The translations under genes were made by a program, and so were the position numbers. A stretch of DNA of 64,000 bases from Lytechinus pictus (Eukaryota), in the NCBI RefSeq assembly GCF_037042905.1, contig NC_087250.1:27778001-27842000 (forward strand), in the 5' to 3' direction. Within the stretch, counting starts at the first letter, position 1; each line of letters starts with the position of its first letter. A model generated the notes under the pieces. It saw nothing but the letters and a program-made list of their open reading frames with translations, had not been told where the DNA came from and searched no databases. Below are positions 1 through 57,270 of this stretch, in pieces.

Positions 1-705
1 GTACTTTACCTCAGATATAGGTTAGTAAAAGTCGTATTGTTTGGAACTGGAAAAATGTTGATGAAACGCTCCCCTGTGATAAAGGAGTCTTTGTTATGTA
101 TGAGTAGCATGATCATCATGGTATGTTATTTTGAGACGATAGCTCTTTTCTGTCCTTGATATTTTCATCTGGTATCATATTGCAAAGCATGTTCAGATCT
201 TTTCGAACTAATTGACTGATTGCAAACAAAATTGCTAAATGGACTGACTAATCAAGACCAATGTTACATGCGCATTTTGTTCAACATACTAACCAGGAAC
301 CAATCAGAAGTGTTCTTTTATATTTACAGGTACTTTTTTTTCTTTTGATCCCCTTTCCTTTCTCTCTCCATATATCTCTTGATCCTGGCAATATGTACGA
401 ATGTAGTCTTGGAAGTTTTAATTATACCTAAGATCAATAGTATACAGTATACAGGATATGTTTAAACATTGTACCGTAAAGTGTAATTAATGAAATGTAT
501 ACTTGTTTTTGTAGTTGTGTAATTCCCATTCATTTCAGTTTGTTAACTAATGTGGATAATTTAAATTAATACCATTTATCTACATGTATCGATCTATTCA
601 TCTATCAATGCCTGATCTTTATCTGGATAAAGCAGTTTCTATTACCGAAGAGACCACCCTGTCTAAAAAAATAGATAAATCAGTTACTTCAATTTTTTTT
701 CCTAG

Positions 706-869
706 GTGGATTAAGGCATGCTACCGTTAGTATCACCGGTGATCAAGCTTATCGTCTTCTAAGACAGGAGGCTGGCGTCCATCGTGTTCAGAGGGTACCA
801 AAGACAGAGAGACAAGGGCGTATACATACAAGCACCATGTCAATAGCGGTACTTCCACAACCTAAAGAG
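706..869 (+). CDS. MTRF1L: Mitochondrial peptide chain release factor 1-like, internal exon (PxT motif); upstream exons lie outside the window
   Basis: Acceptor tttttttcctAG at 704-705 and donor GAG|GTATAA at 870. Translation (G)[54 protein letters not shown] matches the RF1 signature [11 protein letters not shown]...GRIHTST. Confidence 0.93.
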
Positions 870-3830
870 GTATAAACCAAGGGCGTATACATACTATTTC
901 CATGTCTGTAGTGGCACTACCACAACATAAAGAGGTACAAAAACAAGGGCGTATATAAACAAGTACCATGTCAATAGCGGTACTACCACAACCCAAATAG
1001 GTATAAACCAAAGGCGTATACATACTAGTACCATGTCAGTAGCGGTACTACCACAACCCAAAGAGGTATAAACCAAAGGCGTATACATACAAGCACCATG
1101 TCTATAGCGGTACTACCACAACCCAAAGAGGTATAAACCAAAGGCGTATACATACTAGTACCATGTCAGTAGCGGTAATACCACAACCTAAAGAGATATA
1201 AACCAAGGGCGTATACATACTAGTACCATGTCAATAGCGGTACTACCACAACCCAAAGAGGTATAAACCAAAGGCGTATACATACTAGTACCATGTCAAT
1301 AGCGGTACTACCACAACCTAAAGAGATATAAACCAAGGGCGTATACATACAAGTACCATGTCAATAGCGGTACTACCACAACCCAAAGAGGTATAAACCA
1401 AAGGCGTATAAATACAATACCATGTCAATAGCGGTACTACCACAACCTAAAGAGATATAAACCAAGGGCGTATACATACTAGTACCATGTCAATAGCGGT
1501 ACTACCACAACCCAAAGAGGTATAAACCAAAGGCGTATAAATACCAGTACCATGTCAATAACGGTACTACCACAACCTAAAGAGATATAAACCAAGGGGG
1601 TATACATACTTGTACTATGTCAATAGCGGTACTACCACAACCCAAAGAGATATAAACCAAGGGCGTATACATACTAGTACCATGTCGATAGCGGTACTAC
1701 CACAACCCAAAGAGGTATAAACCAAAGGCGTATAAATACAAGCACCATGTCAATAGCGGTACTACCACAACCCAAAGAGGTATAAACCAAAGGCGTATAT
1801 ATACAAGCACCATGTCTATAGCGGTACTACCACAACCCAAAGAGATATAAACCAAGGGCGTATACATACTAGTACCATGTCAATAGCGGTACTACCACAA
1901 CCCAAAGAGGTATTAACCAAAGGCGTATACATACTAGTACCATGTCTGTAGCGGTACTACCACAACCTAAAGAGATATAAACCAAGGGTGTATACATACA
2001 AGTACCATGTCAATAGCGGTACTACCACAACCCGAAGAGGTATAAACCAAAGGCGTATACATACAAGCACCATGTCGATAGCGGTACTACCACAACCCAA
2101 AGAGGTATAAACCAAAGGCGTATAAATACAAGCACCATGTCGATAGCGGTACTACCACAACCCAAAGAGGTATAAACCAAAGGCGTATACATACTAGTAC
2201 CATGTCTGTAGCGGTACTACCACAACCTAAAGAGATATAAACCAAGGGTGTATACATACAAGTACCATGTCAATAGCGGTACTACCACAACCCAAAGAGG
2301 TATAAACCAAAGGCGTATACATACTAGTACCATGTCTGTAGCGGTACTACCACAACCTAAAGAGATATAAACCAAGGGTGTATACATACTAGTACCATGT
2401 CAATAGCGGTACTACCACAACCCAAAGAGGTATAAACCAAAGGCGTATAAATACAAGCACCATGTCGATAGCGGTACTACCACAACCCAAAGAGGTATAA
2501 ACCAAAGGCGTATACATACTAGTACCATGTCTGTAGCGGTACTACCACAACCTAAAGAGATATAAACCAAGGGTGTATACATACAAGTACCATGTCAATA
2601 GCGGTACTACCACAACCCAAAGAGGTATAAACCAAAGGCGTATAAATACTAGTACCATGTCAATAGCGGTACTACCACAACCTAAAGAGATATAAACCAA
2701 GGGGGTATACATACTTGTACTATGTCAATAGCGGTACTACCACAACCGAAAGAGATATAAACCAAGGGCGTATACATACAAGCACCATGTCAATAGCGGT
2801 ACTACCACAACCCAAAGAGATATGAACCAAAGGCATATACATACAAGCACCATGTCTATAGTGGTACTACCACAACCCAAAGAGATATAAACCAAAGGCG
2901 TATACATACAAGCACCATGTCTATAGTGGTACTACCACAACCCAAAGAGATATAAACCAAAGGCGTATACATACAAGCACCATGTCTATAGCGGTACTAC
3001 CACAACCCAAAGAGATATAAACCAATGGCGTATACATACAAGCACCATGTCTATAGTGGTACTACCACACCCCAAAGAGATATAAACCAAAGGTGTATAC
3101 ATACAAGCACCATGTCTATAGCGGTACTACCACAACCTAAAGAGGTATAAACCAAAGGCGTATACATACTAGTACCATGTCAGTAGCGGTACTACCACAA
3201 CCTAAAGAGATATAAACCAAGGGTGTATACATACAAGTACCATGTCAATAGCGGTACTACCACAACCCAAAGAGGTATAAACCAAAGGCGTATAAATACT
3301 AGTACCATGTCAATAGCGGTACTACCACAACCTAAAGAGATATAAACCAAGGGGGTATACATACTTGTACTATGTCAATAGCGGTACTACCACAACCCAA
3401 AGAGGTATTAACCAAGGATGTATACATACTAGTACCATGTCAATAGCGGTACTACCACAACCCAAAGTGATATAAACCAAGGGGGTATACATACTTGTAC
3501 CATGTCTATAGCGGTACTACCACAACCCAAAGAGATATAAACCAAGGGCGTATACATACAAGCACCATGTCAATAGCGGTACTACCACAACCCAAAGAGA
3601 TATAAACCAAAGGCGTATACATACAAGCACCATGTCTATAGCGGTACTACCACAACCCAAAGAGATATAAACCAAAGGCGTATATATACAAGCACCATGT
3701 CTATAGCAGTACTACCACAACCCAAAGAGGTAAAAAACCAAGGGTGTATTTATACTGGTATTATATCTATAGCATTACTGCCAAAATCTAAGGAGATGCA
3801 ACCTATAATGGTACTACCACAGCCTAAACA
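813..3830 (+). repeat. 65-bp minisatellite (about 46 copies) derived from the exon 3' end plus splice donor
   Basis: Unit caagggcgtatacatacaagcaccatgtcaatagcggtactaccacaacccaaagag(g/a)tataaac. Period 65 checked at 813/878 and 1441/1506/1571. The first copy is the coding exon end. Confidence 0.95.
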
Positions 3831-4166
3831 GGTGCAACTTTCCACAAACATAAAATATTTGAGAATGTTGGTAAAATAGTTTCATAATGTTTTGAAAACT
3901 TTTTAGAACACTCTGAAATCATTTTGTGTTTGCTTAATACCCACCTCACTATTGTTTGTCTTATTGGTTAAAAGTTTTATTTATCTTGCATTTGAATCTG
4001 TAGCAAGTAGGAAGTATTGTGACATCACTGTCATAGCATTAGTTTACCTCTCCCCTTGTTAGCTACAGTATATACCTGTGCAGCTTAGAATACATGTAGT
4101 TATTGGCTAATTCTATGAAGTAAAAAATACCAGCCATTACTTGAAAATAAAAATAAAACTCTAATA

Positions 4167-4323
4167 CCTTGGTCACATTTGCTCTATGGCAGCCATACGG
4201 CAAGTAAAGAACAGCCTTTTTAACATTTTTTTTTACCAGCTACATAGGTGATGTGAATAAAAATGAATAAAACGGCTGTTTTCGACTCGCCGTACGGCTG
4301 CCGTAGAGCAAATCTGACTGAGG
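4167..4323. mobile_element. Small palindromic MITE
   Basis: ccttggtcacatttgctctatggcagccatacggc is an imperfect inverted repeat of gccgtacggctgccgtagagcaaatctgactgagg; TA on both sides. Confidence 0.7.
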
Positions 4324-4474
4324 TACTAGTATTAGTTTCATATTCCTGTTGCATGGCCTGAATACATAAAATAGATGTGTTTGGATTACTATAAATAATA
4401 AATTGTTCTAATTTCTGTTTTGGGCATAAAATTTTGTATTCCTTTCATTCTGAATTTTTACTCTTTTAACTTAG

Positions 4475-4592
4475 ATTGATCTGAAACTGGACCCTAAAGA
4501 TCTGAGGATTGAAACAAAGAAAGCTAGTGGAGCAGGAGGTCAGCATGTGAATACAACGGACAGTGCTGTTAGAATTACCCATATACCAACAG
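4475..4592 (+). CDS. MTRF1L: MTRF1L-like exon carrying the catalytic GGQ motif
   Basis: Acceptor ttttaacttAG at 4473-4474 and donor ACAG|GTATTA at 4593. Translation [39 protein letters not shown](G). Phases fit both neighbouring exons. Confidence 0.95.
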
Positions 4593-4840
4593 GTATTATA
4601 TATCTACTACAGACAGTGCTATTAGAATCACTCATATACCAACAGGTATTATATATCTACTACAGACAGTGCTATTAGAATCACTCATATACCAACAGGT
4701 ATTATATATCTACTACAGACAGTGCTATTAGAATCACTCATATACCAACAGGTATTATATATCTACTACAGACAGTGCTGTTAGAATCACTCATATACCA
4801 ACAGGTATTATATATCTACTACAGACAGGTATTATATATA
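4557..4840 (+). repeat. 53-bp tandem repeat (about 5 copies) derived from the GGQ exon 3' end plus donor
   Basis: cagtgct recurs at 4561, 4614, 4667, 4720 and 4773; each unit contains ccaacaGGTatta. Confidence 0.93.
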
Positions 4841-4869
4841 CATGTGGGGGTTTTCTGCCCCTAAGACTA

Positions 4870-6330
4870 CAGTGCGTCCCCAAAAAAACTATACACTTTT
4901 GAAATAGCTGCCAAATAAAAAGTATATAACTTCGGGGGGAAAGACTTATATATATGGAAAGCCAATAAAGTCATCAAATGACATCAAAATGTTGGAAAAC
5001 TATTCATGCTTGAGTGAGCACTACCCACTTAAACAGAGGGTATGAAAATTAGGGTGGGCAGGAATTAGCCTTTCGGTTTCTTTCAGTTTTTGAGAGGCGA
5101 GTCCCTTGGAACTTGCAAACTTGAGGGTGTTGTGATGAATTAATGGTCATTCATTATCAATTTAAATTGTTAGAGCAAATTTCATGAATTATCAAATTGA
5201 AATTCCATGCATGAGTGAGCGCGAATTGCAAATCTTTAGTGCAGCATTTTAACTTTACAATGTGGATCTCAGCAGTGTGTTGATTGGAGTCAGGAGAATA
5301 GGGGTAAGAAGTGACTCCAGTGGGTGAAGTAAGCTGATGGACCTACAGGTCCGCCCCCCCCCCCCTCCTGTTGAGAGTGAGACTGATTGCTATTACATGT
5401 ACGCATTAAGTGCAGAGCGGACTGTCAATTTGATAATAAATTCTGAAAATTAGGTCATCAACTTTTACCTATCAATCATTTAATCAACAATCTGTTAGTA
5501 AATCAACTCAATCAATGTGATCAATCAAATATTCATCTTTTTCAATAAATTATCATTCAAACATTCAGCTTTTTCAATAAATCTTTTCATTAATCATCAT
5601 AATTAATCAAATTCTTAATAATCATTCAATGGAAAAGAAAGACCCATCAACCATAAGTCACTTGGCATTTAAGTTTTAAATACCATCAAGGAGAGAGAAA
5701 GGGGATGGAGGGCAGGCATGAGTACATGACATGTAATTTGTAAGAGAACACAAAGAAGAATGCCCCTTTAACACAGTCTTACCCTATCTCACCCCCAGAT
5801 ACCATCACATTACTCTGACTCTCACAAGCACACTTGCTAAGATCCACATAATAAACTAAAAATGCTACACTAAAATTACAATTCCTGTTTACTCATGCAT
5901 TACATTTCAATTTAGTAACTCATTAAATTTGCTTAAGAAACCAAAACTGATCTCAATTCATCAGTAATTTATAGCATAACACCCTTAACTTTGCAAGTTC
6001 CAAAGGACTCACCTCTAAAAAAACTGGAAGGCTAATTCCTGCTTACCCTAGCAAATGCTAGTCTCTTAGGAGGGGTGAAAGGGGTAGAGAGGGGGGGGGG
6101 GGGGGGTTAAGTGTTCTGGTGACCCATATCCCGTCAACCTACTTCCCCCACCTAAGTCCTATCCCTATTCTGACTTCCATGAACACATTGCTGAGATCCA
6201 CTTGAAAAAGTGAAAAATTGTATTTCATGTTCACTCATGCATTAAATTTCAATTTAATAATTCTTGAAATTTGCTCTAAAACCTAAATTAATAATGCTTG
6301 ATCATTGATTTATCAAAACACCCTCAACAT
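4870..6330. mobile_element. Degenerate DNA-transposon remnant with a Tc1/mariner-like end and internal inverted/direct ~250-bp repeats
   Basis: TA|CAGTGCGTCCC start at 4870. Segment 5060-5300 is inverted relative to 5810-6045 and partly to 6150-6330. No right terminus found. Confidence 0.45.
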
Positions 6331-6349
6331 GTATTGTTACCCTATCCAA

Positions 6350-6820
6350 AAAACATGTTCATATCACACCCATTCTGAAATCTCTACATTGGTTAAAGGT
6401 CAACGATCGCATCATCTTCAAAATCCTTCTCCTTGCATTCCATGCTATTAACGGCTCTGCTCCACAGTACAATTTCAATCTAATCAGCAAATACACTCCT
6501 GTCAGGTCCCTACATTCATCCAACTCTGGTTCCCTAGTTATTCCCAAATCCGTTAAGACATGGGGGTTCAAGCTTTTGCTCACGCTGGCCCTGTTCTCTG
6601 GAATGATCTTCCCCTGGATATCCGTGAATGCACTTCTATTGACACATTTAAACGTTACCTTAAGACTCGTCTATTCAATGATTCTTACTCTTAATTGTTC
6701 CTGAATCTATTACTATTATATTTGTACTTTTTCTCTTTCTTTCTTTCGCTGCGCCTTGTGCACTCTGCCGAGTGGATTCGGCGCATTACAAATCACATAT
6801 ATTATTATTATTATTATTAT
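6350..6820 (+). mobile_element. L2/CR1-group LINE 3' fragment with (ATT)n tail
   Basis: Translates HITPILKSLHWLKVNDRIIFKILLL...GSAPQY...LWNDLPLDIRE...FKRYLKTRLF (frameshifted), a typical L2 ORF2 C-terminus. ATT tail at 6800-6820. Confidence 0.85.
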
Positions 6821-7359
6821 AAAAGAAAGGTCTGATGAAACACATGACCACCATCCCATGTTATCAATATTTTTTTAACGATACAGTCCTTTATATCAAA
6901 CGTTAGAAGTTATCTTTATGAATCTTGAATATTTGGTGCATTATACATTATTTTGTCTCGGGTTTGTCAGGTTTGCTTTTTTTTTTGTTCAATGCTATGT
7001 TAATTATTGTTTTGCATCTTATGTCTTGTTTTAATTTTCAATCTTACTTCTTTTTAAGTTATTTTTTTTTTAGGATCAAATGGAAGGACAGGTATATTTT
7101 GTAAATATCACTGAAATGGGCTACCCTTCATTGAAAAAATTGTTTTGATTTTCACTTATTTTATTTGTGATTTTAATATGGAAAGTAAAAAAACCAAACA
7201 AACAATCAAAAACTAGGTGAGAGAAGTAGATGTGAACAATTGAGCATATAAGCAATCAAATTCAAGTTGCAGCATCTTCAACAAGTCTTTGACAAAAGAT
7301 ATATATTTTACTTCTTTCTTATGCCTATTTAGTTCAATTTTGTTTTGATCTTGAATAAG

Positions 7360-7721
7360 GTATCTCGGCTGAAAGTCAACAAGAGCGTTCCCAACACAAG
7401 AATCGTTCGATTGCCATGACGATGCTACAGACTCGAATCTACAACCGGATCCTTGAAGACCAGACCAACTCTGAAAGATCGATGCGTCGTTCACAGGTGG
7501 GCACAAGAGGGCGCTCTGAAAAGATTCGTACTTATAATTACCAGCAAGATAGGATCACGGACCATCGGATCAGTCGTAGTATCCATGGAGTAATGGAGTA
7601 TCTACTAGGATCTGAACACTTAGATGAAATGATGGTTAGTTGTATGGAAGGCGAGGAGTGTCAGAATATACGAGAAAGAATCCTAGAAGTTTATGATATG
7701 AGCAAAGAGAACTCAAGATAG
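7360..7721 (+). CDS. MTRF1L: MTRF1L-like terminal coding exon
   Basis: Acceptor AG at 7358-7359. Translation (G)ISAESQQERSQHKNRSIAMTML...RRSQVGTRGRSEKIRTYNYQQDRITDHRI, the RF1 C-terminal signature. TAG at 7719-7721. Confidence 0.93.
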
Positions 7722-7837
7722 GATCACGGACCATCAGATCACTCATAGTATCAATGGAGTATCTACTAGGATCTGAACTCATAGGTGAGATGATGGTTAG
7801 TTGTATGGAAGGCCAGGAGTGTCAGAATATACTAGAA
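7714..7837 (+). repeat. Diverged tandem duplicate of coding sequence 7545-7677
   Basis: caagataggatcacggaccatc...gatggttagttgtatggaaggc.aggagtgtcagaatatac occurs at both 7545 and 7714. Confidence 0.9.
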
Positions 7838-8499
7838 AACGTGGAAGAGGGAGGGGTCACTGTTACTAGCAGTTAGACATCATGGTCGTATACAGACTTC
7901 CCCAGAATTTCTCTATTGATTTGCCCATTTTACAGTACCCTAAACAAATATATATTTATTCCCTAAACTAAATGTCTCAAATGTTGTATTGTAATGAAAA
8001 TGTGAAGCTTATACCCTTTCCATGAAATTTTATACCTTCTTACTGGATGTGCTGATATTGCCTGGCTGTTGAAAACAAGACTTTTTACTTGTTATTTTAA
8101 ATGTGCATTGTGGGCAACTTACTTTTTGTAGTTATTGAACAAATTTACTTGAAATTAAAGCATCTTCAAAATGAATATTCTCTGTAGTTTTTCTTTGATT
8201 CCTTGTTTTATACATTATTTTCATCTATTTCGTCTCAAACATTATTATAACCACAAAATCATTATATCAATTTTAGAATCAATTATTCTTTTTATTTGTA
8301 CATGAAATTTCTAGGAATTTTCTTGCGGTACAAAAGAATTGGTCTCTTATGATTTGAAAGAAGGAATAAAAAAAAAAGAAACCAAACAGATTGTGTGCCA
8401 AATGAATCCAGTTGAAACATGTTTATCATCATTAACCTTCTGTCAGGGAAAAAATTTAATAGATTTAATTCCTTTGATTAGACATATGTTCTGACTTAG

Positions 8500-12618: not shown

Positions 12619-13350
12619 CTATAGAGTTGACCCATATCTTTATACCAATCTGTTGGAGGTTAAAGCGGTCACAGATAATGATAGATTGTTGCCTATAAAT
12701 GCACTACACAGGAGGGACTAAGTGGTAAGTAAAAAAAACAGGAGTAATTCTGCATCTGATATCCCCTCCCTACCTCCTATTGGCGCCTAATGTGGTCCAA
12801 AGTATCACTATTCATATGTAGTAGTTTATTTGATATTCTGATACGAATGCTATTTGCTCACCAGCATTATATCATAAAAACAAATATTAATATTGCTCTG
12901 ATCAGATAAGGAGAGCTATAAGTGTTGTTAATAATTGTCAGATAGAGTCATATTCTGTTGCTGATAAATTGGGATCTGAATCTGATTCTGCAGTTCTTCA
13001 TTTGAAGTCTAGGTTTACACATTCAGATTTTAAATAATTGTGAACAGGTAATGTAACTTCTAAATTTTCAAATGATCCATCTTAAAATAGTAATTTGTAA
13101 TTATAATGGGATGGGAGATGATTATGTTATGCTGAAACACAAGGTACATTAGCTGAAGTAGTTTTTTTTTCATCATCAAGTTTATCTTTTGCATTAATGT
13201 TGACATGTATGAGAAGGTGCATGGGTAAGGTACATAACTTATTTCTTGCCATTGAAGCTTATTTTAATTTCATTTCTTCTGAAGCTTTTAACCTCACATC
13301 TCTTACATTTTTACTTTTTCCAGAGCTAAACAATCATCAGACATCACATC

Positions 13351-15000
13351 ATGGCATCAAGATTTCCAGAAGGAAACCAAGTTCAACTCCGACCAAGAAA
13401 AGGTCATGACATGAAATGGTCATGTGACAAGCATGGTGAGCCAATCAAATTTTACTGTAAGAAACACAAAATTCCTATATGTCATCCATGCGCTACCAAA
13501 GATCACAGTCAGAAACCATGTGAGCTAGACGACATCGAAGATGTCATCTTCGAAAGGAGGAGACAGCTAGATGAAAAACGGCCAAAAGTTCAAGGACTTC
13601 ACAAACAATTGGAAGCCCTCAGCACGAAAATAAAGACTGTGTCAACGTCTGGAAGTACTCATCTTCGGACAATTAACAACAACATTCAAGATTCATATCA
13701 CGACAAGATCAAATCTGTTGGAGAAAAGGAGAACAGGATGATAAGGGTTATTAACGAGGAGGCAGATGAGGAAATAAGACTAGTAAATGAGAAGAGAGAA
13801 AAAAGGATCAAGGATTGCAACACCGAGAGAGAAAATGAGCGACAAATCATCAAAGACAAAGAAGCAAAACTTCTATCAGATGCAAAGAAAATCAGCGAAG
13901 TCATTTCTAAGAAGATCAAAGATCTGACTGATAAGAATCAGCATGTAATAAACACTGTAGAGAACATTGAATCAACCTTTAAACGTATAAACCAACATGA
14001 TGAAACACTGGTGAATGAAGCTCCGCAAGTACTTGCATCTATTGATGAAAATTTAAGTTTGAATGTTCATCAAGATGTTAGCGACTGCCTTGACCGAATA
14101 CAGAATGAAGTTGAGAGAATGAAGTTTGTAGAGGGGGAAGTAGGTGGAGAATACTATGGTAGAATTGATGGGTATATCGGTAAATGGGAACTTGTCAAAT
14201 CAATTCACATTCCATCGGTTGTTAGTAAGCCGAGTGTGCATGGTTTAGTCAGTGATGATGAGATATGTGTGCGAGACGTAGGTAACAAAGACGTGTATAT
14301 TACAAACATCAACACTCAACACACAGAGAAAGTCATTGATGGAGGTGTGTTGATTACATCATGTGCGCCCATAGACAGTAACGTAATAGTATGTGGTAAG
14401 GTGAGAGGTGGTTGCACGGGTGACAGGTTGAATGGATGCATCACTCTCTATGACAGACAATGGAAGGTGATTAGAGACATCAGCATACCAAGGAATGGAT
14501 ACGATCGTGTGTATGTTGATGTTGATAGGGATGGGATGATCATCGCTGGTCAGTTAGATCAGTCTAATATCTACGTCATCAATCCTGCTGATGATAAGAT
14601 AGTAAACACTATTACGATGCAGGGTAAGGAGGTGTGGGATGGGATACAAGACTTGTCATCAGGTGATATCGTTGTGAGGACAGTTAATAATGAATACACT
14701 GTCATCTCACGATCAGGAGAAGAAAAGACTGTCATACACTGTGATGAGTGGGTATCGTCCCGGTGTCGCGTTGACAAACTGACAGACACACTCTACATCA
14801 CGTACAGGGATGAAGCGCGTAAGACATACTCAGTTGATCAGGTGTCACGTGATGGTATCATCCAGGCAAGGAGGATCGTGGAATACGAGCAATCAGATCG
14901 CACTAACTTCATGAGCCCTTGTCTCGTTACTCCTACTGGTAACTTTATAGGGTGTGATGGAGACAAACTTCTTATCTACAAGAAGACATACATCTTGTAA
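13351..15000 (+). CDS. RING-less TRIM-like protein (B-box2, coiled coil, NHL-like beta-propeller), 549 aa, single coding exon
   Basis: B-box CDKH...FYCKKHKIPICHPCATKDH; charged helical segment ~aa 60-260; C-terminal beta-strand repeats (VYVDVDRDGMIIAG, IYVIN, CLVTPTGNFIGCD). Acceptor ttttactttttccAG at 13323 just upstream of the ATG; candidate upstream donor cag|gtaatg at 13048. Confidence 0.88.
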   Translation: MASRFPEGNQVQLRPRKGHDMKWSCDKHGEPIKFYCKKHKIPICHPCATKDHSQKPCELDDIEDVIFERRRQLDEKRPKVQGLHKQLEALSTKIKTVSTSGSTHLRTINNNIQDSYHDKIKSVGEKENRMIRVINEEADEEIRLVNEKREKRIKDCNTERENERQIIKDKEAKLLSDAKKISEVISKKIKDLTDKNQHVINTVENIESTFKRINQHDETLVNEAPQVLASIDENLSLNVHQDVSDCLDRIQNEVERMKFVEGEVGGEYYGRIDGYIGKWELVKSIHIPSVVSKPSVHGLVSDDEICVRDVGNKDVYITNINTQHTEKVIDGGVLITSCAPIDSNVIVCGKVRGGCTGDRLNGCITLYDRQWKVIRDISIPRNGYDRVYVDVDRDGMIIAGQLDQSNIYVINPADDKIVNTITMQGKEVWDGIQDLSSGDIVVRTVNNEYTVISRSGEEKTVIHCDEWVSSRCRVDKLTDTLYITYRDEARKTYSVDQVSRDGIIQARRIVEYEQSDRTNFMSPCLVTPTGNFIGCDGDKLLIYKKTYIL

Positions 15001-19756: not shown

Positions 19757-21945
19757 TTAAATGTGACCATTGTGCTACTTCTAAAAATTCAAAGAACTAC
19801 GCCACTGTAATATTGAAATTATGTTCAACGCTTCACCAAAATAATATATCAAAATATAATAACACAACACAAGAAATACATTTAATTATAAAATTATAAA
19901 GAAGATTATGGCAATGGCAATTAATGAAATTGAAATGTGAAGGAACCTGCATAAAAAAGCAGAGCTTTATAATGTCTGCTGGTTCCCTAATATGGTTTAG
20001 ATGCTTTAATATGGTAATTGTTTAACTAGGGGCTGGGGGGGGGGTTCAAGTATATCTAATACAAAATAATGTACACACTGACAGAGCAACGCACGTTGCT
20101 TATTGAATCACCCATTGAAAGTGAATTTCTTTTTCTTTAGAAACCACCCAGTAATGGCTTCCATAAAGTGACAGTGATCTGAAGTCGGGTATCATCGATC
20201 GGGAATCCACCTTCATGTCTATCCATTCTACGTCAAAAGATGGCGCTCTTTCATGTCTACATTACACACACATTGAATCACTTGATGAAGATGTGATTTC
20301 TGACATTAATAAAATCAGTTGAAATCAGAAGTCCTAGCAGTCTACAATGAAGCTGAAATGAAACGATTGATTTCTGTAATGCTAATACGCTAAAGACACA
20401 CTACCTCACTCCTCACTTTTTTCCTTGCACAGAGCAAATATGCAACTAAATAGCTCATGAAATAAATTCGATGAGATTGAGGAATACCCCCCCCCCCCCC
20501 CCATTGCCCAATTGGCAAGCATACACTGTTACTTTACAAACATGCATGTCAGGTCAAAATTTTTATGCAAAAGGAAGATCAAATGAAATATTTTCAAACT
20601 GAGAATGTCGTCTTCCATTATAATCGTTGGAGGAATCATGTCGGGTTTTTTTTGGTGAGGCACCGATCCCTTAGATATGACAAATAAGCTGGAGGTTTCG
20701 TGTTGAGATAGAAAGGCCAACGCAAAAAGCAGGGTAAAAACATGGTGTTGTGATCATGTATCAAGATGCTCAAAGCTACCCGTCACAGGCTGAAAATAAT
20801 ATAGAGTGATACTCACTTACCAAAATGCTGAAAATTTTCATTAAAATATGATTACAAAATACTGCTGTTAGTGTATTTTAATGGGCTGGTGATATCACGT
20901 CCAGTGCCATAGAAAGGACTTTTCAAATAGCGGGTGCTGGGGGATTCGTTAAAAAAATTGTTAACTAGATGATGCCCGAGGGGATTTCGGTAACTAAAAA
21001 AAAAGAAGCAAGAAAAAAAATAATAATAATAAATACATAAATAAATAAATGAATATATAAATAAATAAATAAGTTTCTGCTGCCAAATGTTCCTCTATTT
21101 CAATCATTTTTTTTTTCTTGTCAACTTGATGGCAATGGAGTGCATCCTATGTGATAGCATACGCAACACCCTGTGAAAAATCATGAGGGGTGCAGCTTCC
21201 GCATTCACCCCAGTACCCCCGCTTCATATTTTATTAAGTTATTAGATTAAATCATATTCCTCTACTATCTGAAGACTTGTTTGCATGATAAATATATTAC
21301 ACATTTAATCAGTAGTCAATTCATGTTTTCCGTTCTTGGTGGACGAAATTTGACGAAATATAATTTTCCAAAAAAAAAAAAAAGAATAAGTGCGGATTAG
21401 TCTGCAGGCACAGACCCTGATTAGAACTTCGGCCAACCAGTGTGCCTCCACGCAAAGACTAGCACATACAAAACTTGCTGTTCCAAGATAACCTTCAGTA
21501 CACAAGGCATATAAGTAGGCTGCACATTAAGACCCTTAACTCGAGTGAAGGGTTTGCCCAGCAGACTAAGTGCGGATAGGCATCATCAACTTGTTCATTG
21601 TATTGTAGCGAACCCGTCCGCTACGGTTTTTAGTTATAATGCATTAAACGTAGATGGCGCTATAGCAACGCACTGCGTAAGGCAGCTCTCGGAGACTATA
21701 AATAGCGGAGTTTCGCGGTAATCTCGTCACCGCATTGCTGCGTCACTTGTGCCACTCTTCTTACTCTCCTGGTGATTTGCTATCGGCCTTCGCTTTCGCT
21801 TTTACACAGACCATTTGGCATTCAATTCTGCTTCAATCGTCGGAGATACCGGTGTTAGGACCCTTCTTGCAGACAAGGTAGGAGGTTATTGGAAGTCTCT
21901 CCCCCCTCTAACCCCTCCCCCAACTAACACTCTAAATTCAAAACA

Positions 21946-22659
21946 ATGGCGGATGTTGATGAGTCCGACGACTTTGAAATCGTCACCAACAAAAAGAAAC
22001 GAGCGAGAAACAACAGCTCGCCAGAAAAGAGCGAGGCTCAACCAAACGTTTCAATGTTACAAACAATTTGTCTTGCTCCAATCGAGCAGCAAAAATCAAT
22101 CTCAAAATTAAACCCAATTCACGTTGCAAATGAAATCAAATCTAAAATTGGGGAACCTAAAGAAATCAAAAAATGGGGACGTTGTATCCTCATAAAATGT
22201 AAAGACGAAAGGCAAAAGAAAAGGGCCTTAAATCTAGATAGCTTAGACAACATGCATTTAAAAGCATTTATTTGGATGCAAAACCCGCCAGAAAAGGGTG
22301 TAATCACAGGAATTACTCAATCCGTCACGGACGAGGAGCTCCTTGATGAGCTAAACTCTCAAGGAGTGACCGCCGTAAAAAGAATTAAAAAAAGGGTAAA
22401 CGGCGAACTCACAGACACCACCGCCATTATTTTGTCATTCAAGCAGGGCGAAGCGCTGCCAAAAAGTATCCACATTGGATACATGACTAAAAAAGTCACA
22501 AAATATGTACCACCGGTACAAAGGTGCCAAAACTGCCAAGGTTTTGGTCACCTTAAACAAACCTGTAGATTTAAAACAAGATGTGTTAGGTGTGGGGGAA
22601 AGAATTTTGAGACAAGCCAAAAGAAAATCGTGGGAACAATACTGCAACACAATCAATAG
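21946..22659 (+). CDS. LINE ORF1 gag-like nucleic-acid-binding protein, C-terminally truncated
   Basis: KGVITGI...GVTAVKRI...LPKSIHIGY...YVPPVQRCQNCQGFGHLKQTC (CCHC knuckle). The second knuckle breaks off after CVRCGG at ~22600. Confidence 0.85.
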   Translation: MADVDESDDFEIVTNKKKRARNNSSPEKSEAQPNVSMLQTICLAPIEQQKSISKLNPIHVANEIKSKIGEPKEIKKWGRCILIKCKDERQKKRALNLDSLDNMHLKAFIWMQNPPEKGVITGITQSVTDEELLDELNSQGVTAVKRIKKRVNGELTDTTAIILSFKQGEALPKSIHIGYMTKKVTKYVPPVQRCQNCQGFGHLKQTCRFKTRCVRCGGKNFETSQKKIVGTILQHNQ

Positions 22660-25237
22660 ATTTACCCCTCTTACAGAGGTCTGGAAAAAAGTCAGAGCTC
22701 TACAAAAACCACAAAATAGTCATTCTAACCTTCCACTAAAAGTTGATGGGCAAGCTATCCAAAATGACGAAATGAAGGCAAATTTCATTGCAGATAATTT
22801 TCATAATCCAAAAGAATTAGACGAAGAAACGTCACTCAATAATACTGACTTTGGAAATATAGAACCCGTGAATAATTTGGAAATAATTAATGAAGATTTT
22901 ACTCATAAAGAACTTGTTGAAGCACTAAAAGCAACTCCAAACACAGCCTCAGGACCTGACAATATCAGGGCACTGTTTATTAAAAATCTACCCCACAATG
23001 CAATCGTCATACTGCTTGATATTTTCAATTTAATTTGGCAAACATCTAAATTACCGCTTATTTGGAAATCCTCAATTGTTGTTCCAATATTAAAACCAAA
23101 TAAAGACAAATCAGATGCTAAATCTTATAGACCGGTTTCATTAACCTCGGTCTTATGCAAAATTATGGAAAGGATGATAACTAAAAGACTTTTTTGGCTA
23201 AACGAAAAATACAATCTGATATCACCCCTTCAATCTGGTTTCACTCCAAATAGAAGTGTTTTTGATAATTTAACAAGACTCGACACAGATGTCCATAAAT
23301 CATTTATGAATCACGATTTTGTTATAGCAGCTTTCCTCGACCTTGAGAAGGCTTTTGACAATGTTGACCACGAAATTTTGATATCAAAATTACGAACTTT
23401 TGGTTTCTCAGGTCATATCCTTGATTGGATAACCGAATTCATCAAAGATCGAACTTATAGAGTAAGGATTAATGATTTCATTTCACATCGAAATGAAATA
23501 ACAAAAGGGCTCCCCCAAGGGGGAGTCATAAGTCCATTCTTGTTCAATCTTTACATCAATGATTTGGCCCACTCATGCATTTATTCGAATGTAGCTATTT
23601 TTGCAGATGACATTGCATTATGGTATAGATGTCGAAACCTTAAAATTGCAACCAAAAAAGTCCAAACAGATATCGATTCCATTGCGGAATGTACAAGCAA
23701 AATGAAACTCAAATTATCTGCCACCAAAACCAAAATCATCATTTTCACCAAAAAAACGAAAAATGCCTCCACTGATGTCTATATTAAAGACGATAAAATT
23801 GAAGTTGTATCGAATTTCAAATTTTTAGGTTTAACTTTAGATTCTGAGCTCACGTGGAAATACCACATCAGTGACTTATTAATTAGATGCAAAAAAAGAA
23901 TAAACATATTAAGGTGTATTACTGGCACCCATTGGGGAGCGGATACCAAAACGCTCCTGATTTTGTATCGAGCTCTCATTAAACCTCTGTTGGACTTTGG
24001 TTGCTTTTTATTTGATTCGGCTCCTCAAATTCATAAGAATAAACTAGATTCGATCCAATACCAATCCTTAAAGATTATTACAGGCACATTGCCTTCAACA
24101 TCCTTAAAAAATCTCCAAATTGAATGTGGCGAATTGCCACTTAGCCACCGCAGGGAATTCCTCTCGAAAAAATATAAACTAAATATACTTCATTCAAATA
24201 CATATCATCCAACTAGAGAATCCTTTGCAGACTGCTGGGAGTACAACTACAAATCACCTACTAATTTACCATTACCAATGAGAACTTTGGAGTACTCACC
24301 ATCTGTGGAAAAGATTATTACAGTGCCACAACCACCTTGGCACTTTCCTCCTCCGGAAATCGATTTTAGCCTCAAAGAAAGGATTTCTAAAAAAGACAAT
24401 CCTTCATTACTACAACAAAGCTCTTATGAAACAATTTATTCAAAATATTATAACACCCTTCGAATATATACTGATGGGTCTAAAGATCCTACTTCATCCA
24501 AAACAGGCATATCATTTTATATACCTGACCTAAAATATTCAAAATACCATCGTATTTCACCTGTATCGGTCTGCCGTGCTGAACAGGCAGCAATTATTAT
24601 GGCTCTTACCTGGCTGGAAGATTTCCGCCCTCTATGTGCAACATTGCTAGTTGATTCTCTCAGCACTCTGCAATTGATATCTAACTATGAAAACACTAAG
24701 CTACCCCTAATATTAGAAATACTTACAAAATGTAGGGCACTTTCTTATCTAGGTGCTGAGATAACATTTGTATGGATACCGGCACACTGTGGTATCAGTG
24801 GAAATGAAGAAGCAGACAAATTAGCTAAATTAGCTTTAACCAAACCAGATATCGATGTCGAAATTTCTCCAAATGTAAGTGAACAAATCAGTTCACTGAA
24901 ACAACAATTTCGGGCGTTCAGAAAAGAACCACTACTTAATTGCTATTGTAGACGACATGAAATAATTATCCATCGATTGCGTACAGGTTGGATTAGAACA
25001 GCCTATTTCCTATTCAAAATCCATAGGCATCCAAACGGCCTTTGCGATATTTGTAAAACCAATGATGATGTGGAGCACTATGTCCTCCATTGTAGAAAAT
25101 ACCAAAACGCTAGAACAAAATTCTTACAAACAGATCCAAATATACCAATATCACTATCTACATTATTTGAAAGCGAAAAGGGTCAGTCGTCTCTCATATA
25201 TTTTGTAAGGGCGACTGGACTAATAAATGACTTGTAA
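22505..25237 (+). CDS. LINE ORF2: reverse transcriptase, RNase H and C-terminal Zn finger; no endonuclease
   Basis: RT motifs YRPVSLTS, QSGF, FLDLEKAFD, GLPQGGVISP, IFADDI, FKFLGL; RNase H motifs IYTDGSK, AEQAAI, VDSLS, WIPAHCGISGNEEADKLAK; CDIC...HYVLHC. True ORF2 homology starts at ~22601 (RILRQAKRKSW). Confidence 0.92.
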   Translation: MYHRYKGAKTAKVLVTLNKPVDLKQDVLGVGERILRQAKRKSWEQYCNTINRFTPLTEVWKKVRALQKPQNSHSNLPLKVDGQAIQNDEMKANFIADNFHNPKELDEETSLNNTDFGNIEPVNNLEIINEDFTHKELVEALKATPNTASGPDNIRALFIKNLPHNAIVILLDIFNLIWQTSKLPLIWKSSIVVPILKPNKDKSDAKSYRPVSLTSVLCKIMERMITKRLFWLNEKYNLISPLQSGFTPNRSVFDNLTRLDTDVHKSFMNHDFVIAAFLDLEKAFDNVDHEILISKLRTFGFSGHILDWITEFIKDRTYRVRINDFISHRNEITKGLPQGGVISPFLFNLYINDLAHSCIYSNVAIFADDIALWYRCRNLKIATKKVQTDIDSIAECTSKMKLKLSATKTKIIIFTKKTKNASTDVYIKDDKIEVVSNFKFLGLTLDSELTWKYHISDLLIRCKKRINILRCITGTHWGADTKTLLILYRALIKPLLDFGCFLFDSAPQIHKNKLDSIQYQSLKIITGTLPSTSLKNLQIECGELPLSHRREFLSKKYKLNILHSNTYHPTRESFADCWEYNYKSPTNLPLPMRTLEYSPSVEKIITVPQPPWHFPPPEIDFSLKERISKKDNPSLLQQSSYETIYSKYYNTLRIYTDGSKDPTSSKTGISFYIPDLKYSKYHRISPVSVCRAEQAAIIMALTWLEDFRPLCATLLVDSLSTLQLISNYENTKLPLILEILTKCRALSYLGAEITFVWIPAHCGISGNEEADKLAKLALTKPDIDVEISPNVSEQISSLKQQFRAFRKEPLLNCYCRRHEIIIHRLRTGWIRTAYFLFKIHRHPNGLCDICKTNDDVEHYVLHCRKYQNARTKFLQTDPNIPISLSTLFESEKGQSSLIYFVRATGLINDL

Positions 25238-34312: not shown

Positions 34313-37168
34313 ATGGCGTCTAAGTTCCCAAAAAAGAAGGGTGGAGAGGACGAGCTTCGTACAAGGAAAGGTCATGACATGAAATGGTCATGTGACAAGC
34401 ATGGTGAGCCAATCAAATTTTACTGTAAGAAACACAAAATTCCTATTTGTCATCCATGCGCTACCAAAGATCACAGTCAAAAACCATAGCAGCTAGACGA
34501 CATCGAGGATGTCATCTTCGAAAGGAGGAGACAGCTAGATGAAAAACGGCCAAAAATACAGGAACTTCAGAAACAATTGGACGCCCTCAATGGGAAAATA
34601 AAGACTGTGTCAACGTCTGGAAGTACTCATCTTCGGAAAATTAACAACAACATTCAAGATTCATATCACGACAAGATCGAATCTGTTGGAGAAAAGGAGA
34701 ACAGGATGATTAGGGTTATTAACGAGGAGACAGATGAGGAAATAAGACTCGTAAATGAGAAGAGAGAAAAACGGATCAAGGATTGCAACACCGAGAGAGA
34801 AAATGAGCGACAAATCATCAAAGACAAAAAAGCAAAACTTTTATCAGATGCAAAGAAAATCAGCGAAGTTGTTTCTAAGAAGATCAAAGATCTTGCTAAT
34901 AAGAATCAGCATGTAATAAACACTGTAAAGAACATTGAATCAACCATCAAACGTATAAACCAACATGATGAAACATTGGTGAATGAAGCTCCTCAAGTAC
35001 TTGCATCTATTAATGAAAATTTAAGTTTGAATGTTCATCAAGATGTTAGCGACTGTCTTGACCGAATACAGAATGAAGTTGAGAGAGTGAAGTTTGTAGA
35101 GGGGGAAGTAGGTGGAGAATACTATGGTAAAATTGATGGATATATCGGTAAATGGGAAATTGTCAAGTCAATCCACATTCCATCGGTTGTTAATTACCCG
35201 TTGGTGCATGGTTTAGTCAGTGATGATGAGATATGTGTTCAGGACACAGATAACAATGCCATGTATATTACAAACATCAACACTCAACACACAGAGAAAG
35301 TCATTGATGGAGGTGTGTTTATTACATCATGTGCGCCCATAGACAGTAACGTAATAGTATGTGGTAAGGAGAGAGATGATTTCACGGGTGACAGGTTGGA
35401 TGGATGCATCACTCTCTATGACAGACAATGGAAGGTGATTAGAGACATCAGCATACCAAGGAATGGAGACGATCGTGTGTATGTTGATGTTGACAGGGAT
35501 GGGATGATCATCGCTGCTCAGTGGGATCAGTCTAATATCTACGTCATCAATCCTGCTGATGATAAGATAGTAAACACTATTACGATGCAGGGTAAGAAGG
35601 TGTGGGATGGGATACAAGCCTTGTCATCAGGTGATATCGTTGTGAAGACAGATCATTATGAATACACTGTCATCTCACGATCAGAAGAACGGAAGGCTGT
35701 CATACACTGTGATGAGTGGGACTGGTGGTCACCAACGAACGTAGAGGGCAGCAACACACAAGCGTGTTGCTCTAAGGAAGGTCAACTCAATACGCGCATG
35801 CAGCTGAGGTACGCGCATATTTTATCATTTATGCCAACGAAATCATACGCCGATCAAATACAACAACAAATTAGTAGCGATCACGAAAACAATATGAAAG
35901 AATATGACTACAACGATATCAAAGATAACATTAAAAAATTATGTTGGACAATATACATACATTTAAAAACATACGTTGATATTTAAAACTTTACAAATAT
36001 AAGTTTTAGAAACTAAATCATTACCAAATCGGTGATTGTTGTTATCAGCGATTTCACCAGACGGCTGTATTAGGTGATTTGCGTCGAGACGATTTTGTGA
36101 CCACTCGCAAAGCATTTCGGGATTGAATATGACCACCTTATTTTCTCTGAGCTCTTCGCTGAACCCATCATCACAGTGCAGCTGCAGCGCAGCGCGCAGC
36201 CAATGCAATGCATCCGATGCGTGGGTTGTTTTTTTCACCGTCCATGCCATGGTCTCGGACTCGGAGTTGAAATTTAGACCCGGATTTCGGGGATACAGCG
36301 CCTTTATTTCAGATTTATAGACTTAAAAGTCAAATGACATTTAAAATTTGAAATCTAACCTTGAACAATCATCGTTGATAAACATCAGCCCTGAAGCAAT
36401 TGCACTTCAATTCAGACTAGGCAAATTGGACGTCATTGTCTATGTTGCTAGAAGGTCTATGACGAGTCGCCTGAAGCCCCAGCGCATCATCAACGTCACT
36501 AGCTAGCTGCGCGACCGGCCCAGACTCGGCGCACCCAGGCCAGAAAAATGACCTCGATTATTACGGTGGTTGTCTATGCATTTATTAGTGGTGCAGCGAA
36601 ATTCAGCAGAAGAAAATAAGAGATATGAGGTATCCTCGTCATAGACTTAATATTCCAAAATGAGGAAAAATGTCAAAATCATGATTATTTAAGCTAAATA
36701 TTTTCTTTAAAAATAAAAGTAATATCTTTAATATTTATACCCAGAATAACCGATCTAATAATTGTTCATTAAAAAATATTTGAAATTAACAAATGAAAAA
36801 AAATCAACTCGACTAATTTCTCAAAACCCCACCTTATTTTTTAAAGTGGTCACAAAATTCGAGCGGAGTTGACCTTCCTTAGAGCAACACGCTTGTGTGT
36901 TGCTGCCCTCTACGTTCGTTGGTGGTCACAGTGCCGCGTTGACAAACTGACAGACACACTCTACATCGCGTACTGGGATGGAGCGCGTAATACCATCGCA
37001 GTTGATCAGGTGTCACGTGATGGTATCATCCAGGCAAGGAGGATCGTGGAATACGTGAAATCAGATCGCTTTCACTGGTTCAGCCCTTGTCTTGTTACTC
37101 CTTCTGGTAACCTTGTAGGATGTGATGGGGACAAACTTCATCTTTACAAGAAGACATTAATCTTGTGA
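34313..37168 (+). pseudogene. TRIM-like copy 2, pseudogene (552 codons when repaired)
   Basis: ATG at 34313 after a poly-T AG acceptor at 34282; in-frame TAG at 34487-34489 (TGT in copy 1); transposon inserted at 35733-36921; frame resumes to TGA at 37168. Confidence 0.92.
35733..36921. mobile_element. Young non-autonomous DNA transposon, 1189 bp (P- or hAT-like)
   Basis: Perfect 56-bp TIRs (35733-35788 / 36866-36921) starting CAACGAACG; 8-bp TSD GTGGTCAC (35725-35732 / 36922-36929). Confidence 0.92.
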
Positions 37169-55189: not shown

Positions 55190-57270
55190 TTGGTCTAATG
55201 ACAACTTGGTCTAATAGCCAATTACTCTAATGACAACTTGGTCTAATAGCCAATTACTCTAATGACAATTTGGTCTAATAGTCAATCACTCTAATGACAA
55301 CTTGGTCTAATAGTCAATTACTCTAATGACAACTTGGTATAATAGTCAATTACTCTAATGACAACTTGGTCTAATAGTCAATTACTCTAATGACAACTTG
55401 GTCTAATAGTCAATTACTCTAATGACAACTTGGTCTAATAGTCAATTACTCTAATGACAAATTGGTATAATAGTCAATTACTCTAATGACAACTTGGTCT
55501 AATAGTCAATTACTCTAATGACAACTTGGTCTAATAGCCAATTACTCTAATGACAACTTGGTCTAACAGTCAATTACTCTAATGACAACTTGGTCTAATA
55601 GTCAATTACTCTAATGACAACTTGGTCTAATAGCCAATTACTCTAATGACAACTTGGTTTAATAGCCAATTACTCTAATGACAACTTGGTCTAATAGTCA
55701 ATAACTCTAATGACAACTTGGTCTAATAGTCAATAACTCTAATGACAACTTGGTCTAATAGTCAATTACTCTAATGACAACTTGGTCTAATAACCAATTA
55801 CTCTAATGACAACTTGGTCTAATAGTCAATTACTCTAATGACAACTTGGTCCAATAGCCAATTACTCTAATGACAACTTGGTCTAATAGCCAATTACTCT
55901 AATGACAACTTGGTCTAATAGTCAATTACTCTAATGACAACTTGGTCTAATAGTCAATTACTCTAATGACAACTTGGTATAATAGTCAATTACTCTAATG
56001 ACAACTTGGTCTAATAGTCAATTACTCTAATGACAACTTGGTCTAATAACCAATTACTCTAATGACAACTTGGTCTAATAGTCAATTACTCTAATGACAA
56101 CTTGGTCTAATAGCCAATTACTCTAATGACAACTTGGTCTAATAGCCAATTACTCTAATGACAACTTGGTATAATAGTCAATTACTCTAATGACAACTTG
56201 GTATAATAGTCAATTACTCTAATGACAACTTGGTCTAATAGCCAATTACTCTAATGACAACTTGGTATAATAGTCAATTACTCTAATGACAACTTGGTCT
56301 AATAACCAATTACTCTAATGACAACTTGGTCTAATAGTCAATTACTCTAATGACAACTTGGTCTAATAGTCAATTACTCTAATGACAACTTGGTCTAATA
56401 GCCAATTACTCTAATGACAACTTGGTATAATAGTCAATTACTCTAATGACAACTTGGTCTAATAGTCAATTACTCTAATGACAACTTGGTATAATAGTCA
56501 ATTACTCTAATGACAACTTGGTCTAATAGTCAATTACTCTAATGACAACTTGGTCTAATAACCAATTACTCTAATGACAACTTGGTCTAATAGTCAATTA
56601 CTCTAATGACAACTTGGTCCAATAGCCAATTACTCTAATGACAACTTGGTCTAATAGCCAATTACTCTAATGACAACTTGGTCTAATAGTCAATTACTCT
56701 AATGACAACTTGGTCTAATAACCAATTACTCTAATGACAACTTGGTCTAATAGTCAATTACTCTAATGACAACTTGGTCTAATAGTCAATAACTCTAATG
56801 ACAACTTGGTCTAATAGTCAATTACTCTAATGACAACTTGGTCTAATAACCAATTACTCTAATGACAACTTGGTCTAATAGTCAATTACTCTAATGACAA
56901 CTTGGTCTAATAACCAATTACTCTAACGACAACTTGGTCTAATAGTCAATTACTCTAATGACAACTTGGTCTAATAGTCAATTACTCTAATGACAACTTG
57001 GTCTAATAACCAATTACTCTAATGACAACTTGGTCTAATAGTCAATTACTCTAATGACAACTTGGTCTAATAATCAATTACTCTAATGACAACTTGGTCT
57101 AATAGTCAATTACTCTAATGACAACTTGGTCTAATAGTCAATTACTCTAATGACAACTTGGTCTAATAACCAATTACTCTAATGACAACTTGGTCTAATA
57201 GTCAATTACTCTAATGACAACTTGGTCTAATAGCCAATTACTCTAATAACAACTTGATTTAATAGCCAAT
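55190..57270 (+). repeat. 32-bp minisatellite (2 x 16-bp subunits), about 65 copies
   Basis: Unit ctaatgacaacttggt-ctaatagtcaattact, highly homogeneous; degenerate ttggtcta lead-in from ~55110. Confidence 0.97.

Follow-up and report, generated by a model that had tools for sequence, protein, structure and literature searches.

Tandem repeats that lie over intron–exon borders, at both 5′ and 3′ ends and with units of 10–160 bp, have been described in amphioxus under the name of 'mirages' (Ebner et al., PMC3087553); splicing past them is normal, their length is unstable, their centres are homogenised and the mechanism of their origin is called unclear. The amphioxus genes named are Adh3, the globins BflGb6 and BflGb9, PGBD5 and troponin C (PMC3087553, PMC3902484), and in lancelet PGBD5 the mirages sit at exons 3 and 4 (PMC3902484). 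Also close are intron 7 of human F7, where the most upstream donor wins over those of a 37-bp variable number tandem repeat (PMC1557585), and the exon-derived tandem duplicates that are widespread in introns and untranslated regions (UTRs; PMC9013439).

Here we analyse a 64,000-nt stretch of the genome of the sea urchin Lytechinus pictus (hereafter the window; NC_087250.1 of assembly GCF_037042905.1, positions 27,778,001 to 27,842,000, forward strand), the start of which carries exons 5–7 of a mitochondrial release-factor gene. An earlier note on this DNA had observed that each of these three exons has its 3′ end copied in tandem, and had proposed a mechanism or a tolerance that targets exon 3′ ends and donor sites. 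We find that the repeats at exons 5 and 6 are mirages, known in kind from amphioxus and F7 and not the mark of a new donor-targeting mechanism; with a probability of about 0.75, we attribute all three duplications to ordinary local tandem duplication combined with survival at coding borders. No sea-urchin or genome-wide treatment of mirage repeats was found in the literature searched, which left out most subscription papers.

Two donor-spanning arrays in a release-factor gene

All features below lie on the forward strand and carry window coordinates. Three exons splice into a single open frame with the Pfam domains PCRF and RF-1: exon 5 (706–869; 164 nt, AG..GT, the end of the PCRF domain, with a phase-0 donor at 870), exon 6 (4475–4592; 118 nt, the part of RF-1 with the GGQ motif, donor at 4593) and the coding part of the terminal exon 7 (7360–7721, stop codon at 7719–7721). 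Database homologues go by the name of mitochondrial peptide chain release factor 1-like, the closest one being labelled Lytechinus pictus, and by its predicted product the gene is a mitochondrial translation release factor of the MTRF1L type. Exon mapping gives it seven coding exons, with the duplications in exons 5–7. The 3′ end of exon 4, at window positions 1–20, is free of duplication, and a self-search found no copy of exons 1–4 within 3 kb in the two of five paralogues checked.

Those paralogues qualify the earlier description of one housekeeping gene: the three exons do form one open frame, and the gene exists in several copies. Five same-strand paralogues, A to E, lie at 27.00, 27.48, 27.64, 27.78 and 27.89 Mb of the window's contig (C6, 28.5 Mb long), 0.6–1.5 Mb from the contig end, the window copy being D. 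Reading frames are intact in A–D (4/5), the product of A is identical to database protein P0002, and paralogue E shows no match to exon 3 in the stretch retrieved. The domains, GGQ motif and homologue names are thus those of MTRF1L-type factors in general, whereas here five tandem copies, four with intact frames, represent a mitochondrial release factor that is normally single copy, and several alleles are expressed.

Tandem Repeats Finder (TRF) places a 65-bp minisatellite of 45.2 units at 813–3749 (91% matches), with a degenerate tail to about 3833. Its first unit consists of the 57 nt at the end of exon 5 and 8 intron nt, exactly as the earlier note had it. A 53-bp array of 5.2 units follows at 4552–4828 (97% matches), extended to 4843 by a short, incomplete last unit in which another donor-like motif occurs. 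The TRF register of this array (41 exon plus 12 intron nt) and the 36 plus 17 nt claimed earlier describe the same unit, shifted inside a common GACAG, so that the derivation from the exon 6 end also holds.

In both arrays the tandem unit crosses the exon–intron boundary, and the splice signal persists in many units without being universal: of the 44 donor-position motifs of the 65-bp array in the window, 21 read GT and 23 AT, while the 53-bp units all retain GT, the G at −1 having gone from some of them in paralogues B and C. The GT-to-AT change is one among several common unit variants and was not taken as evidence of selection against pseudo-donors. Length is unstable; the 65-bp array has 11.3, 32.9, 7.3, 45.2 and 98.3 units in A, B, C, D and E, respectively, and the 53-bp array is present in three of the five paralogues (4.2, 3.2 and 5.2 units in B, C and D) and down to one unit plus a common partial tail in A and E. 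The 65-bp array shows concerted evolution: out of 65 positions, the second unit shares 53 with the exon unit and central units share 57–62; units of its tail are 77–81% alike, compared with 94–97% for the 53-bp units. Finally, both arrays were born at the locus: all 89 matches to the 65-bp unit and all 6 to the 53-bp unit, counts that are lower bounds, fall inside the five paralogues, in contrast to a 32-bp array elsewhere in the window, which matches many contigs.

We considered whether the arrays, or the five gene copies, could be assembly artefacts, given that near-identical neighbouring segments are involved and that they are known from the assembly. We regard the chance of this as very slim: the units differ from one another and from the exon in patterned ways, the paralogues differ in exons and insertions, five copies exceed what two haplotypes could supply, the duplicated segment in the 3′ UTR described below is covered by independent RNA runs, and several alleles are expressed.

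Two raw RNA runs carrying the same species label were aligned on paralogue C. The exon 5–6 joint at the first donor was covered by 24 + 36 reads and the exon 6–7 joint at the first donor by 14 + 34, and among the joints listed the first donors are the only ones used, so that in these reads normal splicing looks undisturbed. Depth was zero over the bins of the 65-bp array in both runs, and the bin with the 53-bp array had about the depth that its 36 exon bases alone predict. The RNA alleles do not sort with the reference paralogues, so these reads are not assignable to single paralogues, the window copy D included. An age claim based on organism B contigs matching array bins was dropped, as those contigs could be misplaced exon ends. 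In intron 6, 18 nt at 7074–7091 have a good acceptor and donor and could form an in-frame microexon; they had no RNA depth, and no inserted letters were shown at the exon 6–7 joint.

Read-through past the exon 5 donor reaches a stop at the second codon. This, the GT kept by about half of the 65-bp units and the variation in array length among paralogues would be expected if the pseudo-donors were regulatory, their occasional use sending transcripts to decay and thereby buffering the dose of the four intact copies. We hold such a role to be very improbable, as the 65-bp array has no RNA depth, the 53-bp array is missing from two of five paralogues, GT has been lost at 23 of 44 positions and, in F7, downstream pseudo-sites do not compete (PMC1557585).

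Judged by boundary, splice signal, splicing, instability, concerted evolution and birth at the locus, the 65-bp and 53-bp arrays are mirages. They differ from those of amphioxus in that the host is a sea urchin and not a lancelet, and in the five-paralogue size series, the copy at the stop codon and the array bases within exons that this locus adds. The likeness to the F7 repeat lies in a first unit that spans the donor, silent downstream pseudo-donors and use of the most upstream site; F7 has one array with 5–9 sites, whereas here there are up to 98 units with putative pseudo-donors (PMC1557585). The duplicates treated in PMC9013439 are whole-exon copies, often alternatively spliced, whereas here exon ends only are copied and none is seen spliced, a 169-bp unit copied into the 3′ UTR being the one that fits.

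The earlier note had further held that the 5′-most copy is the functional one and that amplification runs downstream. First donors are indeed the ones used in RNA; the pattern described in the note is, however, forced by geometry, because only the 5′-most copy at a donor (the 3′-most at an acceptor) adjoins the rest of the exon, and the array itself records no direction. RNA-templated repair, which the note had offered as an example of a mechanism, does not survive in the form of copying from spliced mRNA, since the units of both arrays include intron bases. More broadly, nothing but the exon-end position speaks for exon ends having been copied by RNA-templated repair or reverse transcription, apart from a LINE-type reverse transcriptase reading frame in the window, a common thing; with 8–17 intron bases per unit, no exon–exon joint, copies that are adjacent and head-to-tail, and no poly(A) or target duplication seen, we consider this origin extremely improbable.

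The copy at the stop codon and turnover among paralogues

The third event is of another kind. A 169-bp source unit at 7545–7713, formed by the last part of the coding sequence, has an identical 8-nt word at its two ends and is followed by a partial second copy at 7714–7838; in self-comparison, 7545–7592 repeats at 7714–7761 (92%) and 7592–7677 at 7753–7838 (93%). The second copy is transcribed and is 3′ UTR, as the RNA continues through it. Part of the terminal exon is recopied downstream as had been claimed, while the source is the end of the coding sequence and not the exon end, for RNA runs through and beyond it. Spanning a stop codon within an exon, with RNA going on past the stop, this copy behaves as a mirage does without being a repeat of a splice border.

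It is found in all five paralogues. Moreover, fragments at 26.13 and 26.30 Mb of the same contig (minus strand), 86% alike, begin right where the terminal unit does and contain one full and one partial unit. This makes the duplication old, and their sequence suggests that the terminal repeat may once have had three or more units. The two fragments also hold 1.6 kb of downstream sequence.

The 8-nt word encodes Gln-Asp-Arg codons at the start of the unit and Arg-stop at its end. Since the S. purpuratus protein has its stop at the same position, some or all of this microhomology probably predates the duplication. The 53-bp unit is flanked by exon and intron 12-mers that match at 10 of 12 positions, a likeness that is either seed or remnant. 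Microhomology thus accompanies two of the three seeds (169-bp and 53-bp).

The events number three and not fifteen: each happened a single time, either ahead of the split of the paralogues or with later spread among them by conversion. From sequence divergence they appear to differ in age, given tail units 77–81% alike in the 65-bp array, 53-bp units 94–97% alike and a terminal copy common to the 86%-diverged fragments.

Some exon ends carry array-type bases. Paralogues A and C are nearly identical (1, 0 and 0 differences in exons 2, 4 and 5, and also in the intron just after the array), and A has array-type bases at the end of exon 6, with its 53-bp array gone. Exon 6 of paralogue E bears a variant of C's array units that changes Ile to Thr, and its exon 5 has an array-type base without the diverged second unit. 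The simplest reading is that arrays contracted through the exon unit in A and E and overwrote coding bases; the reverse order, or gene conversion, would also fit.

Border copies elsewhere in the genome

We compared exons with their 140-nt flanks in a sample of 60 exons (103 had been planned). Of the 60, 51 came from kinase genes and were selected by hand among the short matches in 132 rows; the others are the first 9 of 52 myosin exons, chosen from 69 rows. Units holding more than roughly 110 intron bases escape detection with flanks of this length, so the sample rate is a lower bound. Exons 5, 6 and 7 of the release-factor gene scored 78, 37 and 186 against a maximum of 33 among 7,080 cross-pair nulls; their copies are therefore not chance similarity. 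The threshold was set at 36, which exon 6, a positive control, barely exceeds, a second reason to read the sample rate as a lower bound.

Two of the 60 exons (L090 and L064) reached the threshold, giving donor-spanning copies at 1/60 donors at least (95% interval 0.04–8.9%) and clear acceptor-side copies at 0/60. In the kinase exon L090 (C12, 27.214–27.215 Mb), the last 85 exon nt and about 105 intron nt are copied as a 190-bp donor-spanning unit (87.5%), and two further degenerate partial copies lie downstream. In L064 (C6, 7.259–7.262 Mb), a 47-nt internal exon segment has a copy upstream (81%), whose reading as acceptor-spanning is unproven, 206 of 500 shuffles having scored as high. The kinase exon preceding L064, outside the 60-exon sample, has a donor-spanning copy of its own of about 200 bp, in the same intron as the 47-nt copy. 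The same exon-end architecture thus occurs in two unrelated kinase genes, and beside both cases there are intron-only tandem copies (71–73% identity).

The mirror image exists as well: upstream of a beta-trefoil exon of a CSL/Su(H)-type gene on the window's contig (L104 163–795, minus strand), a 64-bp unit made up of the acceptor and the initial bases of the exon is present in 9.9 copies (96%). Neither L048, whose score of 28 is below threshold, nor L096 379–475, a 30-bp minisatellite about 17 nt behind a myosin donor that has a donor-like word and is not exon-derived, was counted. Long-range DNA searches with three of the 60 exons found no nearby copies, and the positive control gave one.

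The idea that duplication is aimed at donors and exon 3′ ends is therefore not supported, on several grounds: the third event has no donor, an acceptor array exists in the same genome, the published mirages occupy both boundaries, and inspection of the upstream exons of the gene found exons 1–4 untouched. What stands is the tolerance, seen in the use of first donors in RNA and in four paralogues with open frames.

A broader form of the idea is that some mutational process centred on junctions (breaks linked to transcription or splicing, R-loops, or a step in chromatin or composition) raises the birth rate of tandem duplications at the edges of exons in this lineage, possibly more so at donors and in certain genes. 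Three neighbouring exons are affected here, a second gene has copies at two neighbouring exons, and one clear donor-side case in 60 plus one on extension stand against no clear acceptor-side case in 60. We think it improbable that such a process explains the data: the third event lacks a splice site, the acceptor array is verified, tandem copies confined to introns are frequent in the stretches concerned, and exon halves stay recognisable longer, which biases detection. One case against none in 60 exons is no test and cannot show a donor bias; a moderate bias or a junction hotspot could still exist.

Several observations do weigh against explaining everything by undirected local duplication. 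Two of six donors in the release-factor gene, compared with 1/60 elsewhere, point to clustering beyond a uniform rate (Fisher p=0.020), a comparison limited by a gene picked for its duplications and by a background rate that is a lower bound with an interval of 0.04–8.9%. The clear boundary-spanning copies met without a prior pointer, one in the sample and one on extension, are all donor-side. No microhomology is demonstrable for the 65-bp seed, in an old array whose second unit and tail have diverged and whose centre is homogenised. And as read-through at exon 5 stops immediately, decay could hide the use of downstream donors. If borders were hit independently at rates of 1.7–9%, some 3 to 390 genes, out of a total taken as 20,000, would have at least 3 of 7 coding 3′ borders affected, so that one such gene from a scan is not extraordinary. 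Clustering of events by gene is nonetheless likely.

Origin of the copies and what they mean

Under local tandem duplication, genomic DNA would be copied by slippage or microhomology-mediated repair and by chance straddle a coding border. A copy that runs from exon into intron or UTR would leave the first copy attached to the exon, and the spliceosome would pick the first donor, as it does in the RNA. Such a border-straddling copy may be near neutral and survive, whereas duplications wholly within coding sequence would mostly be purged. From two units on, unequal exchange and slippage could expand, homogenise and contract the array, of which the copy-number spread is visible here, and contraction through the exon-end unit would replace the last exon bases with array sequence, a pattern that is present though its direction is less certain. 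The concentration of events at this locus may follow from a genome that makes many local tandem copies and from a locus that forms an unstable multi-copy block near the contig end.

Other elements were noted along the way. Introns 5 and 6 hold two inverted-repeat elements, a short MITE-like one at 4146–4344 whose depth in the genome is very high, and a larger, nested one at 5050–6327. The LINE-type element of the window, at 21928–25237, contains a frame resembling ORF1 and another, of 916 aa, for a reverse transcriptase/RNase H. Two long open reading frames at 13330–15000 and 34490–35986 resemble TRIM proteins (B-box, coiled coil, propeller), the first with a Pfam B-box and the second apparently truncated and interrupted. 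The 32-bp array (55194–57272, 65 units) belongs to a family dispersed over many contigs. On another contig, C7, eleven near-identical intronless kinase-domain matches are spaced about 4.0–4.3 kb apart at 28.966–29.009 Mb.

An unlikely proposal joins the two themes of this work, namely that in this genome junction-centred duplication seeds mirages at a few in every hundred exon borders, with clustering by gene and perhaps a bias to donors, and that contracting arrays act as unselected reservoirs that rewrite coding exon ends. If this were true, the arrays would again and again give rise to intron growth and to coding mutations, an example of the latter being the replacement of Ile by Thr that lies beside the GGQ domain in one paralogue.

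Taken as a single case, the locus is a clear natural instance in which the first donor is chosen over dozens of decoys, and one that can mislead gene predictors. Its particular value lies in the five paralogues, which together show expansion, loss and apparent write-back into an exon at a single locus, and a chromosome-scale genome in which mirages recur makes their origin, called unclear in PMC3087553, testable by a count of breakpoints.

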